64,000 nt of DNA, from positions 96,001 through 160,000 of the forward strand of contig CAVVOP010000019.1 in assembly GCA_963749915.1 (NCBI GenBank), written 5' to 3'. A program made the position numbers. Origin of the DNA: an uncultured cyanobacterium. Its GTDB lineage: Bacteria > Cyanobacteriota > Cyanobacteriia > Cyanobacteriales > Cyanobacteriaceae. Below, piece after piece: positions 18,001-33,000 of this stretch; positions within the stretch are counted from its first letter, which is position 1, and each line of letters opens with the position of its first letter.

Positions 18001-21000
18001 ACTGATATTCCTCTCTACCAAACGCTGTAAACCATGACGGGTAAATTGAATTTTGCCCTTAGTTAGTTGTTGCCTAATTTGCTTAAGGGATTTCATCAAA
18101 AATCCCCCAAAGAAAAACCGACTTTCTCTAACTGTATTTTAATCTCTTTATCCAAAGCCAAACCTTCTCGCATTTGTTCTGCTAACTCTTTGGTTAAAAC
18201 TTCCATCGTCTCCTCAAAGGAAATACCATCATCCTCTTCATCAGGAATCCCTACATAACGCCCTGGAGTCAAGACAAAATTATGCTTCTCAATCTCCGCT
18301 AACGTTGCCGACTTACAAAAACCCTTAACATCCTTATAATTCCCCTCGCTCTCTGGGAGAGGGTTTAGGGGTGAGGGCTTCTTCTTCCACTCATGATAAG
18401 TATCGGCAATTTTGGCAATATTCTCATCACTAAAAGCACGATTACGACGATTGACCATATAACCTAACTCCGAAGCATCAATAAATAACACCTCACCCTT
18501 ACGAGATCGACTCTTATTCACGTTTTTATAGCGACTGAGGAACCATAAACAAGCAGGAATACCAGTGTTATAGAATAGCTGTGTCGGTAACATGACAATA
18601 CAATCCACCAAATCAGCTAAATCCTTATGAGCATCATTGAGAAAAGAACCTTCAGGATTCCACTTAATATTCGAGCCATCAATTCCCCTAATCGCCAAAT
18701 TCATCCGACATAACTTATAGGTGGTTTCGTTGCTCTCCTGCCCATAGATAGAAATATCATCCAACCGCCCTTGGTGAGCTTCAATAAACTTCTCACTCTG
18801 AACAAACATTCCCCCCGAACCGCAAAGGTTAATCTTACAGTTTCTCAGCCCCAACTGTCGAAAATATTATTTGCTCTGTTAGGTAACCTGCCGAATGTAG
18901 GTTCTAATTGTTTATTTGTGGGCATTTATCTTTTGACATAAAGTTTACTAAGAAGTCATTCAAATCTTCTATGTGGTTGTCAAAATCTATTATCGAGAAT
19001 CACTTTTGACCAAAATATCTGAGCAGGAAAACCAGTTATTAGAGGTTTAAGAATTTCTGTGACGATGATTTTAGAACTTTTAAGCTCAATCTATTTCATC
19101 TTAGAAATTACTCACATTCAATTGGTTAAACTAAGAACCCAATCATTAGGCTATTATTTGTGGGAATTTCTTTTTTACTGGTTAATATTTGCATTTATAT
19201 TTTATGGTCAAAAATATCTAAACCAAGACGAGGTGAACGTTTAGTTTATCATCATTTATTTTCTCTAAAACAAATGCTAGCATTTTTATCGAATGTAGTT
19301 AATCAAATTTATTAGGATTGTTATAAATCTATTATTCCATATGTATATAACATAATAACAACCAATCCTATAGAGATAATTAATAATATAACCACGATAA
19401 AATTTAAACAACCTAAATTTCCTTTTATACTTTTAATAACATCTTGTAGCTTCTTAGTTTTTACAGAAAACAGATCATCTATTTGAACTATTTTTTCATC
19501 ATGAATTTTAAGTGATTGACGTATATTAAATATATTCTCAGAATTTAAACTTTCATTATTCTTAATGAGTTCATAAATATCTTTTATGTGTTCACTAATT
19601 TTATTGGTAAAATAGATATTTAGTTTATTTATATCTTGATCAACTTGATATTTGATATCAATTAGTTCACTTGTTATTTCTGATAAATTTTGTTCCAATA
19701 AATTTTGTTTATCTTGGGTTTGTAAATTACTATTATAGTGTTCATTTAAAAGTTTTATTAAATCTTGAATATTTTTGGGTATTTTACCCTCTTTGTTAGT
19801 AAGTTTTTCTAATTCTTCCAATAATTGATTGGCGGGAGAAATCTTACTGCGAATATCACCTTTAGCTTTTAATTGCCAAGATTCTCCACCGGGTAAAATA
19901 TCAACTTTACATGGTTTTTCTATACTGAAATTATTACTAATTGGGCTTACATCTCCTTGAATAATGAATAAAGATTCTATCTGATTTTTTAAACGATTAA
20001 AATTAATTTTACGATCACCATTGAATACTAAATAATAAGATTTACCATTTTCATTTTCTATTAAAATAATCCAATAATAACCACTATTTGTATATTCTAA
20101 ATAAATATTTTCATTATTATCACCCCTATAAGTATCTGCCGTCACGGAAACAGGAGTCCCATATTCCGCTAATATTTGAGGGGCATAATTATAAATATTA
20201 ATTAACTCCTCTTCACTAATATTTATCGGCTTTGGTTGGGGGTTAGATTTTCCACCTGTAACGATAACTCTTTGAGTCGATATTTCTAGTTCTTTTAGTT
20301 TTTTATCTACTTCTTGGAATTTGTTATATATGAGTTCTAGATTTTGACTTGGGGTGTTTTCATTCATAGTTTTTATATGGAAATAGTCAATAATTAATAA
20401 TGAAAATTATAAAAATTACCAATTAAATTAATTTACTAAATCTATTTCTCCAGATTGAACTAATGCCCATTTGTTTTTAGTATTTTGTTTAACGATGGCA
20501 GGTTTTATTATACTAATTTGATTTCCTTTCAATGTTTGAGATAAATTACCATTACAAATAAATAATTGTGACTTTTTAATTTGTTGTAGAGTTTGAGAAT
20601 TAAATGGAGTATGAGGATCTAAAAATAGATAAAAGTCTCCGTTATTACTATTACTTGCCACAATATAGTATTCTCCTTGACGGTTGTTATTTTCTAATTC
20701 TACTAAACCTTCCCATGTACCCGCTAAAACTTTATTAACAGTATCTTTTGTCATACTTACCCGAATAGCATTTTTTAATAAGCCTTGAGGATTTTCTCTA
20801 TATAAATTTATCAATCTCACATCTTCTGACATTGGGGGAGGCGGCGGTGGTGTTTCTTTATGAATGGTATTAGAATATTGTTGTTGCAAAGATGTGGCAT
20901 CTCTATCACTATCATTCACTGATGGAGGGTTATTTATTTGAAATTCTAATTGTCTGAATTGTTGCTGAACTATAGAGAATTGTGTTTGAGAAAAAGTATT

Positions 21001-30000: not shown

Positions 30001-33000
30001 TTTCAGCAATCAGGATGGGGATCCAGTCATTGGTACTTTTTGTTTTGCCCTTCAAAAAAATTAAATAGATTTATGTAAATTTTATCGACGAAAAATTTAT
30101 AATCTATGACTAATAATTATGATTTAGAAAAAATCTTCAGTTATGTACAAAAATTAGAGAAAAGAATTACTAAATTAGAATCAGAAAAAGCAATAATTGT
30201 TCATGGTCATTTAGCAAGTCAATCAGCAAAATCCCTGACAATTTCTTTGAATCAATTAATTAATGTTTATAACGATGTTTCTCATATTTTAGATGTTTAT
30301 GCTGTAACAGTTTCTTTATCCGCCGATAGTTATCGTCAACAAGTAAAAGATCAAGTTATATTAAATCAAGTAACAAGAGGAAATTATTGGGTTATTTTAT
30401 TGGAAAATGAAGAAGGAAAAAACTATTATTTATTACCCAATGCTAATATTAAACTCAGAATATACAGATTAAAAACTATCAGTAATTTATTTGCAATCAA
30501 AGGTGAAAATGATGGAAAACAAGAAGAATTTACTTTAATTAAACCTGCTAAATTAGAAATTTTATCCAGTGGTAATGAGTGGAGAATCAAGGAAAAAGGA
30601 GAGTTATTTTTAGGTAAGAAAAGCTCTACCCAAAGGTTAGTATCAGAGTTAGAAAAATTTACCGCACATGAAGACAAAATTCCCGCTAGTTTACAACAAT
30701 TGTTAAAAATTTTAACCAAAATAAATCAAGGTAATTCTCAGTTAGCCAAAGAGATTGAATTATTAGATAGTAGATTACAAAAATTAGAGCCTCAATACGT
30801 TAGGTTAATTAATTTATATTATAAGAATCCCCAAAAATTTGCTCAGTTAGAAGGAGGTAGTCAACGATTAAAAGTAACAAAACAGACGATTAAAGATTTT
30901 ATTCAAAATACCATGAATTCCGTTTATTTAGAAGTTAATGAAGCTGGAGAATATTTACTTAAAAAAGGAGAAAAAGATGAATATTTATTTCCAGATCCTC
31001 TCTTAATTTTTGATAAAATGACTTTATTATTTGCCCGTCAAGGAAAATTATTTATCATTGAAAATGAAATACCGATCGCGATTTTGGGCAAGGATATGAA
31101 AATCAAAAAACCTGCTAAGGTAAGAAAAAATGGTGATGTTTGGTTATTAATTGAATCGGGAGAAATAAGTTTATAACAATTCTAAGTATAGCTATTCGCC
31201 ATGTGGTATTGACAATTTAATGATCAACTTACCTGAGTGAACTATAAAATTGTTGATAAGGGGAGGTAATAGGTAATGGCTAATGGGTAATAGGTTCGAG
31301 AATTTAGATAAACTCTTTCATTTATCCAAGTATAAGACTAAGATAAACACCTTAATTTATAAGCTATGCCTTACCCATAAGTGCTGAAATACCTACTATG
31401 ATTGTATTCTAGAAAAGTTAGTTTAAAGGAGAAAAATCATGCAATCATGGGCAGCAGAAGAACTAGAATACACTAATTTACCGGACAAACGATTAAACCA
31501 AAGATTGATAAAAATTGTGGAACAAGCAAGTGCGCAACCTGAGGCAAGCGTTCCTCAAGCAAGTGGTGATTGGGCTAATACTAAAGCCACTTATAATTTC
31601 TGGAATTCAGAAAAGTTTAGCAGTGAAGATATAATTGATGGTCATCGACTCAAAACAGCACAAAGAGCTTCACAGGAGGATGTAATCCTAGCCATACAAG
31701 ACACCAGTGACTTTAATTTTACTCATCACTTGAGCAAAAATTGGGACAAAGGCTTTGGACAAACCTGTTCTCAAAAATATGTGAGAGGGCTAAAAGTCCA
31801 TTCAACCCTTGCCGTCAGTTCACAAGGAGTTCCCTTAGGAATTTTAGACCTACAAATCTGGACCAGAGAGCCCAAGAAAAAGCGCAAGAAAAAGAAATCA
31901 AAAAGTAATACCAGTATTTTCCACAAAGAAAGTAAAAGATGGCTGAGAGGATTAGTTGATGCTGAATTGAATGGCGCTGACTTAGCCATTCCATCAACGA
32001 CAAAGATAGTCACGATTGCTGATCGAGAAGGTTATATGTATGAGCTGTTTGCTTTGGAAAGAGAACCCAACTCAGAATTATTAATTCGAGCTAACCACAA
32101 TCGTCCTGTCAATCATGAAATGAAATATCTGAGAGAATCTATCTCTCAAGCCCCAGAGGCCGGAAAATTAAAGGTTTCTGTGCCCAAAAAAGATGGTAAA
32201 CCTCTCAGAGAAGCCACTTTGACCATTCGTTGTGGGATGTTAACCATCTCTCCTCCCAGCAATAGTTCTCCAGGGAACAACCGCTCACCGATTAGTTTGA
32301 ACGTGATTTATGCTGTGGAAGAGAATTTCCCCGAGGGAGTCAAACCGATTAATTGGCTTTTACTGACTACTTTAGAGGTGAACGATTTTGAGGATGCTGT
32401 TGGTTGTATTCGTTGGTACAGTTATCGTTGGCTTATCGAGCGTTACCATTATGTCCTCAAAAGTGGTTGCGGCATTGAAAAACTACAACTAGAAACAGCA
32501 GCAAGAATTAAGAAAGCTTTAGCTACTTATGCCATCGTAGCTTGGAGATTACTCTGGCTCACTTATCATGCTCGAGAAAATCCGCAACTCAAGAGTGATA
32601 CAGTTTTAGAGCAACATGAATGGCAATCTCTTTACTGTCATTTCCATCGTACTTCTATAACTCCAGCTCAGCCTCCTTCCCTTAAACAAGCTATGGTTTG
32701 GATTGCCAAATTGGGAGGATTTTTAGGAAGGAAAAATGATGGTGAACCAGGTGTCAAAAGTCTTTGGAGGGGCTTGAAACGTTTACATGATATTGCTTCC
32801 ACTTGGAAATTGGCACATTCCTCTCCCTCTATAGCTTGTGAGAGTTATGGGTAAGGCATAGAATTTATAAGTGTTTCTCCTATCTCCTATCTCCTAACTC
32901 CTACCCTCACCACTCATATTTTTTCAGCAGACCCTAATTAGTAACAATGTTGATAAAAGTTTAGAGCAATATTGCCATAGAATTTAGTTTGGATTAACTG

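Follow-up and report, generated by a model that had tools for sequence, protein, structure and literature searches.

Divergent GTPases of the Tubulin_2 type, associated with membrane-associated, lineage-specific partners, occur in FtsZl1-vWA operons (PMC2875224), and both features recur in the cluster analysed here. In the passages of that work considered here, Makarova and Koonin proposed membrane remodelling for FtsZl1 operons and neighbourhoods. In the FtsZl1 rows inspected in its Additional file 5, the proteins measure 763-1208 aa, the cyanobacterial ones 910-1127 aa, and most of the cyanobacterial rows inspected have a vWA neighbour. One FtsZl1 neighbourhood of that file, Magnetospirillum amb2958-amb2961, includes a 1626-aa DnaK-like protein. 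The FtsZl1-vWA operons were later placed among the GAP1-N2 DO-GTPase systems, where they make up the tubulin theme (PMC7159879); according to the relevant passages by Kaur et al., this theme is confined to Firmicutes and Actinobacteria and GTPase-centric systems are nearly absent from cyanobacteria.

Passages of the same work describe the MoxR-vWA ternary conflict systems (VMAP/iSTAND; PMC7159879), in which a conserved core NTPase is accompanied by a vWA-like protein and by variable components, a grammar shared by the present cluster. WD40, FGS/FGE-sulfatase, peptidoglycan-binding, transmembrane (TM) and coiled-coil modules are common to the variable sets of the two. In STAND/NLR-like tripartite immune proteins, a swappable N-terminal head (caspase, TIR, kinase) is carried by a conserved NTPase body. 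HSP70-like NTPase domains can replace STAND in such architectures, according to the part considered of a 2026 preprint (10.64898/2026.10.19.760177).

The window cluster and its core proteins

The window, that is, the whole 64,000-nucleotide stretch of DNA analysed, comes from an uncultured cyanobacterium. Its ORFs (Table 1) bear out the gene set of the first-pass annotation, with a tubulin-like GTPase (T), a giant ATPase (G), a four-helix membrane protein (M), a lipoprotein (L) and four paralogues sharing a domain, here called P. The membrane setting claimed there also holds, M having four hydrophobic helices and L a signal peptide with a lipobox cysteine, C25, invariant in alignment A1. Membrane association of the assembly is supported. 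Remnants of Type I R-M lie on one side of the cluster and a Tn5-type transposase on the other. Comparison with the PADLOC defence models gave no match for any of its proteins, the nearest being a coiled-coil hit to JetC (1.7e-4), and none has a Walker A motif. A recognisable effector enzyme was not found in the window's own cluster.

Table 1. Genes of the cluster, with positions counted along the window
Feature	Position	Strand	Description
Eight-gene cluster	19321-31176		L, M, T, G and four P-domain proteins
A348	19321-20367	-	P domain at the N-terminus, followed by a long coiled coil and, at the C-terminus, a TM anchor (323-341)
B487	20428-21891	-	Lipoprotein signal, then ~200 aa on the outer side of the membrane, a single TM helix (226-244), a coiled coil and a P domain at the C-terminus
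C301	21908-22813	-	Zinc-ribbon-like N-terminus (CPICG...CAYC), coiled coil, P domain at residues 171-301
G	22917-26207	-	1096 aa; ASKHA ATPase at residues 532-944
T	26224-27723	-	499 aa; tubulin/FtsZ-superfamily GTPase
M	27847-28335	-	162 aa; four predicted transmembrane helices (hydropathy)
L	28505-30064	+	519-aa lipoprotein, divergently transcribed
D356	30106-31176	+	Two P domains (39-171, 222-356) with a helical linker between; 3' of L

T, encoded by a single-copy gene in the window's genome, matches Pfam Tubulin_2 with 31.2 bits (cut-off 27). Among its 21 orthologues, 20 match Tubulin_2 and eight match PF00091, and the motifs GIGGTG, GFRGRPxxG and GSIFGGTGASGxP are invariant. Within Tubulin_2, T forms a branch that is both short and divergent. 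It differs from the GTPases of the FtsZl1-vWA operons, as far as the inspected rows of Additional file 5 represent them, in its length and in lacking a long coiled-coil tail. Moreover, the obligate partner in the cluster is a giant ASKHA protein, and the window contains neither a DO-GTPase nor a GAP1. Since T is short and divergent and the cyanobacterial FtsZl1 rows inspected are long and mostly have a vWA neighbour, the idea that the cluster supplies a partner set for the FtsZl1 family is not established for FtsZl1 as a whole.

Where the vWA protein of these operons would stand (PMC2875224, in part), the cluster has L, which carries a MIDAS-like DGSxSM plus TD motif. In alignment A1, S64, M65 and D155 are invariant, and D60, G61, T154 and the C35/C513 pair nearly so. 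Comparison of L with vWA by hhalign, however, covered the first strand only (probability 10.6%), and L has no match in Pfam or the PDB.

G was modelled by AF2 with a pLDDT of 85.6. It comprises a head (residues 1 to ~330, predicted to bind T), a beta-rich domain (~340-530), the ASKHA ATPase and C-terminal helices. A Foldseek search of the PDB returned 425 matches at E<=0.001, the best being DnaK (7.8e-8), BeeR, BiP, Hsp110 and MreB (range 8e-8 to 4e-6), and VIA-align on residues 532-944 gave Z scores of 19.0 for MreB, 17.6 for ParM, 17.3 for FtsA and 17.0 for both the Hsp110 nucleotide-binding domain (NBD) and BeeR. Thus, the actin fold assigned to G in the first-pass annotation stands at the level of ASKHA and not beyond, as the Hsp70 NBD, MreB, ParM, FtsA and PilM score alike. 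MreB, ParM, FtsA, PilM, BeeR and the DnaK NBD share with this part of G both the fold and the phosphate-1, phosphate-2 and adenosine motifs, kept as DFGT, DxGGGTSD and GGN. G differs from these ATPases by 530 extra residues N-terminal to the ASKHA part, by a helical insertion at 805-864 and by the lack of any Pfam family over cut-off, its sole Pfam matches, to MreB/FtsA at residues 745-782, being sub-threshold. A single-sequence search found 502 clusters of G homologues at E<=1e-30, instead of the 832 previously given; relaxing the cut-off to 1e-10 and to 0.001 raised the number to 1006 and 1384, respectively.

Coupling of T and G

Among 401 genomes of the phylum, 35 encode G and 33 encode T, and none has T without G. 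The two genes lie at most 1.4 kb apart on one contig in 29 of the 33 T genomes; in the others they are 5 kb apart (one genome) or on different contigs of fragmented assemblies (three). The order L-M-T-G-P recurs across 100 cyanobacterial loci, including 20 of the 20 fetched from the phylum sample. Among 80 further loci, 66 of the 67 with enough upstream DNA have T ahead of G by no more than two ORFs, M is present, directly upstream of T, in 59 of 63 such loci, and a P gene directly follows G in 59 of 62. In 42 of 54 loci, L lies on the upstream side of G.

The natural T-G fusions claimed earlier were confirmed: 12 proteins of 1341-1683 aa join the two, some of them outside cyanobacteria. Fusion P0004 aligns to residues 5-1086 of G with 35% identity, and P0006 to residues 2-1087 (E 1e-29). 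Fusions bear the names of metagenome-assembled genomes (MAGs) of Treponemataceae, Spirochaetaceae and Syntrophomonadaceae, and eight metagenome loci keep the module order with T and G fused; where downstream DNA is available, two downstream proteins match the P profile (6/6). Contrary to what had been supposed, the machine is therefore not only cyanobacterial.

Complex prediction with G 1-340 and T gave an ipSAE of 0.89, versus 0.00 for the best of three controls; of 157 solved complexes 116 attained that mark, compared with 2 of 215 mismatched pairs. Contact agreement between runs was at least 94% and partner pLDDT at least 84. Conserved residues of T make up 35 of 86 positions in the predicted interface, the GFRGRP, GASGLPT and LPY loops among them, and 69 of 413 elsewhere. 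It should, however, be noted that the interface overlaps residues that would in any case be conserved for GTP binding, so that this enrichment is not independent support for the contact. Co-occurrence, adjacency, fusions and the predicted complex support T and G as an obligate pair, and the two very probably form one physical complex, in line with the first-pass annotation.

P domain, head swaps and neighbourhood

The P domain is an alpha/beta domain of ~130 aa (model pLDDT 91), present in five copies in four proteins, all at the cluster locus of the window's genome. The earlier description of a shared domain of no known fold was upheld, Foldseek finding no match in PDB or BFVD at E<=0.001 (best VIA Z 3.4). 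P occurs in 32 of 35 G-positive and 6 of 366 G-negative genomes. Of 29 long P proteins, four carry WD40 and one an FGE-sulfatase domain; the zinc-ribbon matches of C301 in NCBIfam are weak. Evolution is fastest in the P genes, whose synonymous sites are AT-rich: identities to the two nearest loci are 83/83% for T, 83/77% for G, 78/77% for M, 66/53% for L, 54/54% for C301 and 40/41% for B487, and at 59 of 59 loci the GC3 of P genes is below that of T and G. The finding of P-G and G-P fusions and the confinement of P to the locus in the window's genome support the proposal that the array belongs to the machine and acts like an adaptor set.

A new observation concerns relatives of G in which caspase, TIR, protein kinase, trypsin plus VMAP-M1, or P takes the place of the predicted T-binding head. 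Ten relatives with a displaced head were scanned, and Peptidase_C14 was found on five, Pkinase on two and TIR_2 on one; Trypsin_2 and VMAP-M1 occur together on P0274. These relatives may belong to systems unrelated to T. With their caspase, TIR and Trypsin_2-VMAP-M1 heads, the G relatives parallel the VMAP and iSTAND proteins (PMC7159879, in the passages considered), and the G family resembles STAND/NLR-like proteins in its swappable head on a conserved NTPase body. In G, however, this body is ASKHA instead of P-loop, the head of the window's G is predicted to bind a second NTPase, T, instead of being an enzyme, and G itself lacks a C-terminal repeat sensor. A link to the MoxR-vWA systems is physical in L039 and L067, where an iSTAND-AAA-vWA trio is followed by a G whose N-terminus bears an additional domain. 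The cluster differs from them in having a tubulin-type GTPase and an ASKHA ATPase where they have a MoxR AAA+ protein, an exported lipoprotein of unproven vWA fold, and the P domain, without structural match, as adaptor.

Conflict-type neighbours are a minority of the 80 loci: beside these two trios, DO-GTPase-like genes lie 3' of the P array in two (L055, L073), and STAND/WD40 genes lie within or beside the cluster in six. L082 has a CHAT-TPR gene after the array. Flanking genes are mostly ordinary housekeeping, not defence, so the loci do not in general bear the mark of a 'defence island'. In keeping with mobility, clustering of 240 flanking ORFs gave 212 groups. Copies are mostly chromosomal. 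T homologues occur on five cyanobacterial plasmids, one of which, mobilisable and of 47.5 kb, carries the whole cluster. A search of 50,697 phage records yielded no T homologue, and the ASKHA part gave only one weak match in viral contigs; these results have no bearing on the direction of any conflict.

Weighing the readings of the cluster

Of the two alternatives in the first-pass annotation, 'cytomotive or conflict system', the second is favoured, because the relatives' ATPase core bears caspase, TIR, kinase or trypsin-VMAP heads. We hold it on balance likely that the cluster is an NTPase-centred conflict system akin to those of Kaur et al. (2020) and not a cytomotive machine. A cytoskeletal or membrane-remodelling machine, whose tubulin-like T and actin-like G filaments at the inner membrane would give shape to membrane, vesicles or envelope structures or move them, with the P proteins as membrane adaptors, appears rather unlikely. 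Such a machine would agree with the FtsZl1 membrane-remodelling proposal in the passages of PMC2875224, with the tubulin GTP-binding motifs kept in T, with the filament formers heading the VIA list (MreB, ParM, FtsA, BeeR), with the membrane proteins M, A348 and B487 and the lipoprotein L, and with the housekeeping flanks. It accords poorly, however, with the patchy spread of G, missing from one of two other sampled genomes of the window's own genus, with plasmid-borne copies, with L006, where G is two separate ORFs, with fast-evolving, AT-rich adaptor genes and with the caspase, TIR and kinase heads. In FtsZ and tubulin, the nucleotide-loop face is the longitudinal polymer contact; as the G head is predicted to cover this face of T, canonical protofilaments seem blocked.

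TubZ is a tubulin-like and ParM an actin-like partition NTPase, and the plasmid-borne T homologues would suit a plasmid or chromosome segregation system of either kind. This is very improbable: copies are mostly chromosomal, the Gloeothece plasmid with a T homologue already encodes ParA and ParB, neither a DNA-binding adaptor nor a centromere-like repeat is evident, and membrane or exported proteins make up five of the eight that the cluster encodes. Alternatively, an Hsp70-like G might, with T, fold, insert or export the P proteins and L in surface-structure biogenesis. Hsp70 NBDs come first in Foldseek, one G homologue is labelled 'molecular chaperone' in a public source, several partners are exported or membrane-inserted, and couples of NTPase chaperone and vWA are known from passages of Kaur et al. 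(PMC7159879). However, the cluster has no Hsp70 substrate-binding domain, J-domain or GrpE, Pfam HSP70 is touched by only one of 21 G homologues (E 0.0059), the P-G fusions of some relatives suit a docking domain better than a client, and the caspase, TIR and kinase heads are left unexplained. A chaperone-type helper is thus improbable.

Just on the probable side, we read the cluster as a mobile, membrane-anchored, NTP-driven conflict module of the immune or abortive-infection type with five conserved parts; its role, trigger and output are what we infer. At its core would be a stable T-G heterodimer, the first ~165 residues of G clamping the nucleotide-pocket face of T. The rest of G, with its beta-rich domain and ASKHA ATPase, would be a reusable switch or assembly module that bears other heads in relatives. 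As a docking adaptor, the P domain would link fast-changing proteins (membrane-anchored, coiled-coil, zinc-ribbon, WD40 and FGE-sulfatase) to this core, and L and M would form the envelope side of the machine. A signal arising at the envelope, or given by an invader protein to which a P protein has bound, would shift the ATP/GTP state of the core, which would then assemble at the inner membrane, so that the invader or the cell would be stopped.

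Organisation and conservation of the cluster

The cluster consists of eight ORFs. The genes for the 4-TM protein M (162 aa), the tubulin-like protein T (499 aa), the giant protein G (1096 aa) and the P-domain proteins C301, B487 and A348 lie on the minus strand, separated by gaps of 16-123 bases; those for the lipoprotein L (519 aa) and for D356, the fourth P-domain protein, are on the plus strand, divergent from the other six. The cluster is flanked on the left by fragments of a Type I restriction system and on the right by a Tn5-type transposase. No recognisable effector enzyme is found in the window's cluster, and none of its eight proteins contains a Walker A motif. 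The first-pass annotation, which had drawn attention to this cluster, is confirmed and extended.

Location of the cluster and of related or neighbouring features (window positions, or locus, genome and contig handles)
Feature	Location	Strand
Eight-ORF cluster	window 19321-31176	
G	window 22917-26207	-
Type I restriction-modification remnants	window 15257-18854	-
Tn5-type transposase	window 31439-32854	+
G broken into two ORFs	L006:7962-11237	
iSTAND, AAA+ and CoxE-type vWA trio between T and extended G	L067:5045-13198	
Same trio, then second G copy	L039:79-7126	
Four extra genes past P array	L055:17343-22299	
Four extra genes past P array	L073:17575-22600	
Isolated P ORF	G178:C1:2516659-2517042	
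Isolated P ORF	G198:C1:3051329-3051712	
Isolated P ORF	G131:C1:1228522	
Isolated P ORF	G192:C1:122854	
Isolated P ORFs	G238:C13 and C38	
Isolated P ORFs	G174; G204; G334; G248	

The restriction-modification remnants look like a degraded system. They comprise an ORF of 476 aa whose N-terminus is weakly PIN-like and which contains a Methylase_S specificity domain, a 252-aa ORF whose match is limited to the last third of N6_Mtase, and short ORFs between the two. The transposase, 262 bases past the last P gene, is intact (Tnp_DNA_bind, DDE_Tnp_1, Dimer_Tnp_Tn5).

L, M, T and G, then one to six P genes, occur in every one of the 20 loci retrieved from the phylum sample. Of the 80 further loci, 59 of 63 contain M, 42 of 54 have L upstream, and in 59 of 62 G is immediately followed by a P gene. 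In eight metagenome loci with a fused T-G gene, a homologue of L (E 1e-5 to 1e-27) comes first and an ORF of ~155 aa second, ahead of the fusion; in the six with downstream DNA, the two following proteins share a C-terminal domain that matches the P profile (E 3e-6 to 5e-2). The order is the same there; the module is not limited to cyanobacteria.

The surroundings vary from locus to locus, 240 flanking ORFs falling into 212 clusters. Most flanking genes are housekeeping genes (photosystem subunits, tRNA synthetases, glycolytic enzymes), and the argument from defence islands, which fails as a general statement, was therefore dropped. T occurs on five cyanobacterial plasmids; in Gloeothece verrucosa PCC 7822, L, M, T, G and two P genes are together on a mobilisable plasmid of 47.5 kb. 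Phage records yielded no T homologue, and viral contigs gave one weak ASKHA match only.

The components diverge at unequal rates. Identities to the two nearest loci are 83/83% for T, 83/77% for G, 78/77% for M, 66/53% for L, 54/54% for C301 and 40/41% for B487. Base composition is mosaic within the cluster: in the window, GC3 is 0.16-0.21 in the AT-rich P genes, 0.25 in L and 0.34-0.37 in T, G and M. GC3 of the P genes is below that of T and G in 59 of 59 loci, and in 55 of 59 it is below that of the flanks. Cassette exchange, low expression and silencing are possible reasons. In one locus of the phylum sample (L006), G is broken into ORFs of 706 and 382 aa, and one in-frame stop interrupts each of several further matches to G or T in the sample, which suggests that the cluster decays in some lineages.

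The tubulin-like protein and the giant ATPase

T belongs to the tubulin/FtsZ superfamily. Its match to Pfam Tubulin_2 is significant (31.2 bits, E 1.7e-7), just over the cut-off of 27, and recurs in 20 of 21 orthologues; the classical Tubulin family (PF00091) is matched by 8 of 21. A search of PDB sequences with the T profile returned zero matches. The glycine-rich nucleotide loops GIGGTG, GFRGRPxxG and GSIFGGTGASGxP are invariant, with G10, G11, G13, G185, G186, T187, G188, A189 and G191 identical in all 21 sequences. Loops of the GGGTG[ST]G-like type are thus present at the positions that we take, by analogy with FtsZ, to be T1 and T4. For the T7 catalytic loop, which together with the C-terminal domain is required for polymer-dependent GTPase activity, no NxDxxD-like motif is evident, and the conserved residues Q283, N285, H288 and E291 are spaced differently. 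T also differs from the FtsZl1 group defined by Makarova and Koonin (2010; PMC2875224), whose members are large (763-1208 aa in the rows examined in their Additional file 5) and described with a coiled-coil domain; T has only 499 residues and is not a large protein with a C-terminal coiled coil.

No family profile scores above its cut-off with G. MreB, FtsA and EutA touch the DxGGGTSD loop alone, MreB_Mbl at 17.9 bits (cut-off 27) and FtsA at 17.6 (cut-off 31.8), both covering only the phosphate-2 loop, and the G profile found nothing better than E 0.03-3 among PDB sequences, again at that loop only. The fold was examined on an AF2 model built from 21 homologues (pLDDT 85.6). Foldseek returned 425 PDB matches at E<=0.001 (best 7.8e-8), with DnaK, BeeR, BiP, Hsp110 and MreB at the top of the list; the lists are filled by the ASKHA domain, and residues 1-530 are barely covered. 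A second, independent aligner, VIA, gave for residues 532-944 Z scores of 19.0 with MreB, 17.6 with ParM, 17.3 with FtsA, 17.2 with PilM and 17.0 with the Hsp110 NBD (126 chains at Z>=8; MreB 4cze superposes with an rmsd of 4.0 over 285 aligned residues). Both searches assign the two-lobed ASKHA fold, shared by actin, Hsp70 and sugar kinases, to residues 532-944. The actin/Hsp70 fold proposed in the first-pass annotation thus stands as ASKHA, with scores that leave nearness to the actin-like or the Hsp70-like branch undecided. Neither branch accommodates G at the family level. No MreB, ParM or FtsA profile above cut-off places it with the actin-like filament formers. Membership of the Hsp70 family proper was rejected, since G does not combine a Pfam HSP70 match with a substrate-binding domain: HSP70 is matched by one of 21 homologues, under the cut-off (E 0.0059). 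The cluster contains no J-domain or GrpE partner.

Residues G538, D540, F541, T546 and G880 of G are invariant, and E724, D747, G749, G750, G751, S753, D754, G879 and N881 nearly so. They include what we take to be the phosphate-1, phosphate-2 and adenosine motifs of ASKHA proteins, all three of which G possesses. Conservation of these motifs and of Glu 724 makes it likely that G is an active ATPase. A very hydrophobic and highly conserved helix with the motif GLYYYVG (residues 840-858, pLDDT ~95) is part of the long helical segment inserted into the ASKHA domain; it may be buried in the core or dip into the membrane. Among 1.84 billion representatives, the G family comprises 1384 clusters at E<=1e-3, 1006 at E<=1e-10 and 502 at E<=1e-30.

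T and G are tightly coupled. In a phylum sample of 401 genomes, G occurs in 35 and T in 33, and G is present in all 33 genomes with T. Searched with T at E<=1e-5, the phylum sample gave no match in any genome devoid of G; the two genomes with G only contain one weak partial match and one fragment interrupted by a stop. T and G lie within 1.4 kb of each other on one contig in 29 of the 33 genomes; in one they are separated by a three-gene insert, and in three, whose assemblies are fragmented, each gene is on a contig of its own. The species collection yielded 80 more loci, 72 of them with full-length G, and T lies within two ORFs upstream of G in 66 of the 67 loci with enough DNA. Twelve longer proteins of 1341-1683 aa contain T, all ordered T then G. 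One carries a Planktothrix name and aligns from residue 510 to G 5-1086 with 35% identity; another, named after a Treponemataceae MAG, aligns to G 2-1087 (E 1e-29). The two T-G fusions reported in the first-pass annotation were found again in the search of the 1.84 billion representatives.

Complex prediction with T and residues 1-340 of G gave an ipSAE of 0.89, compared with 0.00 for the best of three controls. Among solved complexes, 116 of 157 score this high, as do 2 of 215 mismatched pairs; since the alignments were our own, these counts are a rough guide here. At least 94% of contacts agree between runs, and partner pLDDT is at least 84. The model supports binding of T by G. On the G side, the predicted interface involves residues 2-61 and 101-164, including the nearly invariant P53, W56 and R58; on the T side, it involves residues 100-146, 189-201, 220-222, 238-269 and 290-329. 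Conserved T residues are enriched in this interface (35 of 86, against 69 of 413 elsewhere), which is not independent evidence, since those loops, which by analogy with FtsZ presumably line the nucleotide pocket, are conserved for GTP binding anyway. Judging from the contact list, G would cap the face that tubulins use for longitudinal contacts. It is very probable that T and G form one complex.

The P domain and the membrane components

A348, B487, C301 and D356 together contain five P copies of ~130 aa each, and a profile of 72 copies detects precisely these five, and no more, in the window's genome. The domain is modelled with a pLDDT of 91. Foldseek found nothing at E<=0.001 in the PDB and BFVD, the best VIA score against 48,161 PDB representatives was at noise level (Z 3.4, RelE/YoeB-type toxins), and no Pfam or NCBIfam family fits. 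The earlier statement that P has no known fold therefore holds as far as the PDB and BFVD reach. A lone weak match of C301 to Csx20 (PADLOC E 0.0034, NCBIfam 0.056), seen in one of 72 P domains, was put down to chance, and homology of P to the head or to the beta-rich domain of G was rejected (hhalign probability <1%).

P is present in 32 of the 35 genomes with G and in 6 of the 366 without it, two of these six being weak. Lone P-domain ORFs are also seen outside T-G clusters, some of them in genomes devoid of T or G; P is thus not strictly bound to the cluster in other genomes. Among 29 long P proteins scanned, four have C-terminal WD40 propellers and one ends in an FGE-sulfatase domain, modules that are typical of conflict systems.

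Several cluster proteins show membrane features. Hydropathy indicates four helices in M, a C-terminal anchor in A348, and a lipoprotein signal with one TM helix in B487. L has a signal peptide, an invariant lipobox Cys and a second, nearly invariant Cys pair. It has zero matches in Pfam, NCBIfam and the PDB, a PDB profile search included, and no model in the ESM Atlas, where its feature matches are unnamed clusters. Its conserved DGSxSM...TD motif resembles a vWA MIDAS; hhalign against six vWA domains aligned 15 columns, limited to the first MIDAS strand, with a probability of 10.6%. As read from its sequence, a vWA fold is a candidate for L, and a lead only.

Exchangeable heads, published systems and possible function

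In the G family, the N-terminal region that binds T in the model can be exchanged. Ten G relatives with a displaced N-terminus were scanned: five have a caspase, two a protein kinase, one a TIR domain and two nothing recognisable. The relative P0274 contains Trypsin_2 and VMAP-M1, the latter being the middle region of the third component in VMAP ternary systems. The P domain occupies the head position in two G relatives and is C-terminal in two others; in L003, the nearest relative, a P-headed copy is located within the P array. A second G-core gene of 590-994 aa, headless or P-headed, was observed inside or after the P array in L003 and six other loci (L029, L046, L075, L077, L085, L106). The presence of two G-core genes in one cluster hints that G cores with different heads cooperate.

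A minority of loci are joined by conflict modules. An iSTAND, AAA+ and CoxE-type vWA trio, of the MoxR-vWA type, adjoins a G copy in L067 and L039 only. In L067 it lies between T and a G with 280 extra N-terminal residues; in L039 it precedes a second G copy, 80% identical and similarly extended. The helical extension (240-280 aa) is conserved between the two loci, matches no Pfam family and may be a new effector-associated domain. STAND or WD40 giants are inside or beside the cluster in six loci (L038, L050, L064, L071, L073, L081), and a gene for a CHAT-TPR protein lies past the P array of L082. DO-GTPase1/2-like genes are found 3' of the P array in L055 and L073 only. The four conserved extra genes there encode three small proteins whose matches to DO-GTPase1/2 are weak to borderline, and a ~820-aa protein with a peptidoglycan-binding domain.

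The window's cluster falls outside three published sets of systems. No DO-GTPase or GAP1 gene lies in the window, and the cluster does not belong to the GTPase-centric systems built on these (Kaur et al., 2020; PMC7159879). The MoxR AAA+, vWA, VMAP/iSTAND trio is also absent from the window, and the cluster is not a MoxR-vWA ternary system. Nor is it among the anti-phage systems catalogued in PADLOC 2.0, whose models fit no cluster protein (the best match is that of the A348 coiled coil with JetC, E 1.7e-4) and have no match for G. In the passages of Kaur et al. (2020) considered here, the tubulin theme is placed in Firmicutes and Actinobacteria, tubulin and HSP70 themes are treated as non-overlapping, and GTPase-centric systems are called nearly absent from cyanobacteria. 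The parts of Makarova and Koonin (2010) considered mention vWA, kinase, GTPase and OmpA neighbours of FtsZl1, and a Magnetospirillum neighbourhood in which genes for FtsZl1 and vWA proteins are followed by a DnaK-like gene (1626 aa). Most of the cyanobacterial rows examined in their Additional file 5 (910-1127 aa) have a vWA neighbour, and none of them combines a 500-aa protein with a following 1100-aa protein; Additional file 1 names further cyanobacterial members without lengths, for example from Cyanothece sp. PCC 7822. The Tubulin_2 group is set aside as divergent in the relevant part of Santana-Molina et al. (2023; PMC9871819), and a 2026 preprint (10.64898/2026.10.19.760177) states, citing other work, that HSP70-like NTPase domains can replace STAND in tripartite immune architectures. 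In the literature searched, from which the neighbourhood tables of Kaur et al. were left out, the T-G pair, its fusions and the P domain are not described.

The cluster is best read as a new member of the conflict systems that combine an NTPase centre with diversifying partners. At its core, the head of a giant ASKHA ATPase would cap a tubulin-fold GTPase, and the P adaptor domain, itself new, would link membrane and sensor proteins, which change from locus to locus, to this core. A conflict role is favoured by the exchangeable heads of G, the modules found on P proteins, the conflict genes joined to the cluster in some genomes and the unequal rates of its parts; the missing PADLOC match, the lack of a recognisable effector enzyme in the window's cluster, the housekeeping flanks and the small share of loci with joined conflict genes count against it. 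As to whether the module serves conflict or a housekeeping role in the cytoskeleton or in biogenesis, we lean slightly towards conflict. A more specific proposal, which we regard as speculative and rather improbable, is that T and G are a two-nucleotide machine of a new type. In such a machine, the G head on the polymerisation face of T would read or set the GTP state of T; once a signal had been relayed via L and the P-domain proteins, T and G would switch into a higher-order membrane assembly, and infection would be halted. If this were true, the tubulin superfamily would gain an immune role through a heterodimer with the actin superfamily, the G core would be to ASKHA proteins what the switches of the STAND type are to their own class, and widespread, and P would be a new adaptor fold.

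The poorly understood Tubulin_2 branch gets a concrete, testable partner and a predicted interface; if this interface is right, a tubulin-fold protein would be used as a capped switch and not as a polymer. The giant ASKHA proteins also emerge as a large family (1006 clusters at E<=1e-10) whose heads include a tubulin binder, caspase, TIR, kinase and trypsin-VMAP modules. Such swappable heads suggest an ASKHA-based switch parallel to the STAND NTPases in bacterial immunity. P adds a confidently modelled domain without structural match that behaves like an adaptor, and the grammar of Kaur et al., an NTPase core with diversifying partners, is extended to cyanobacteria.
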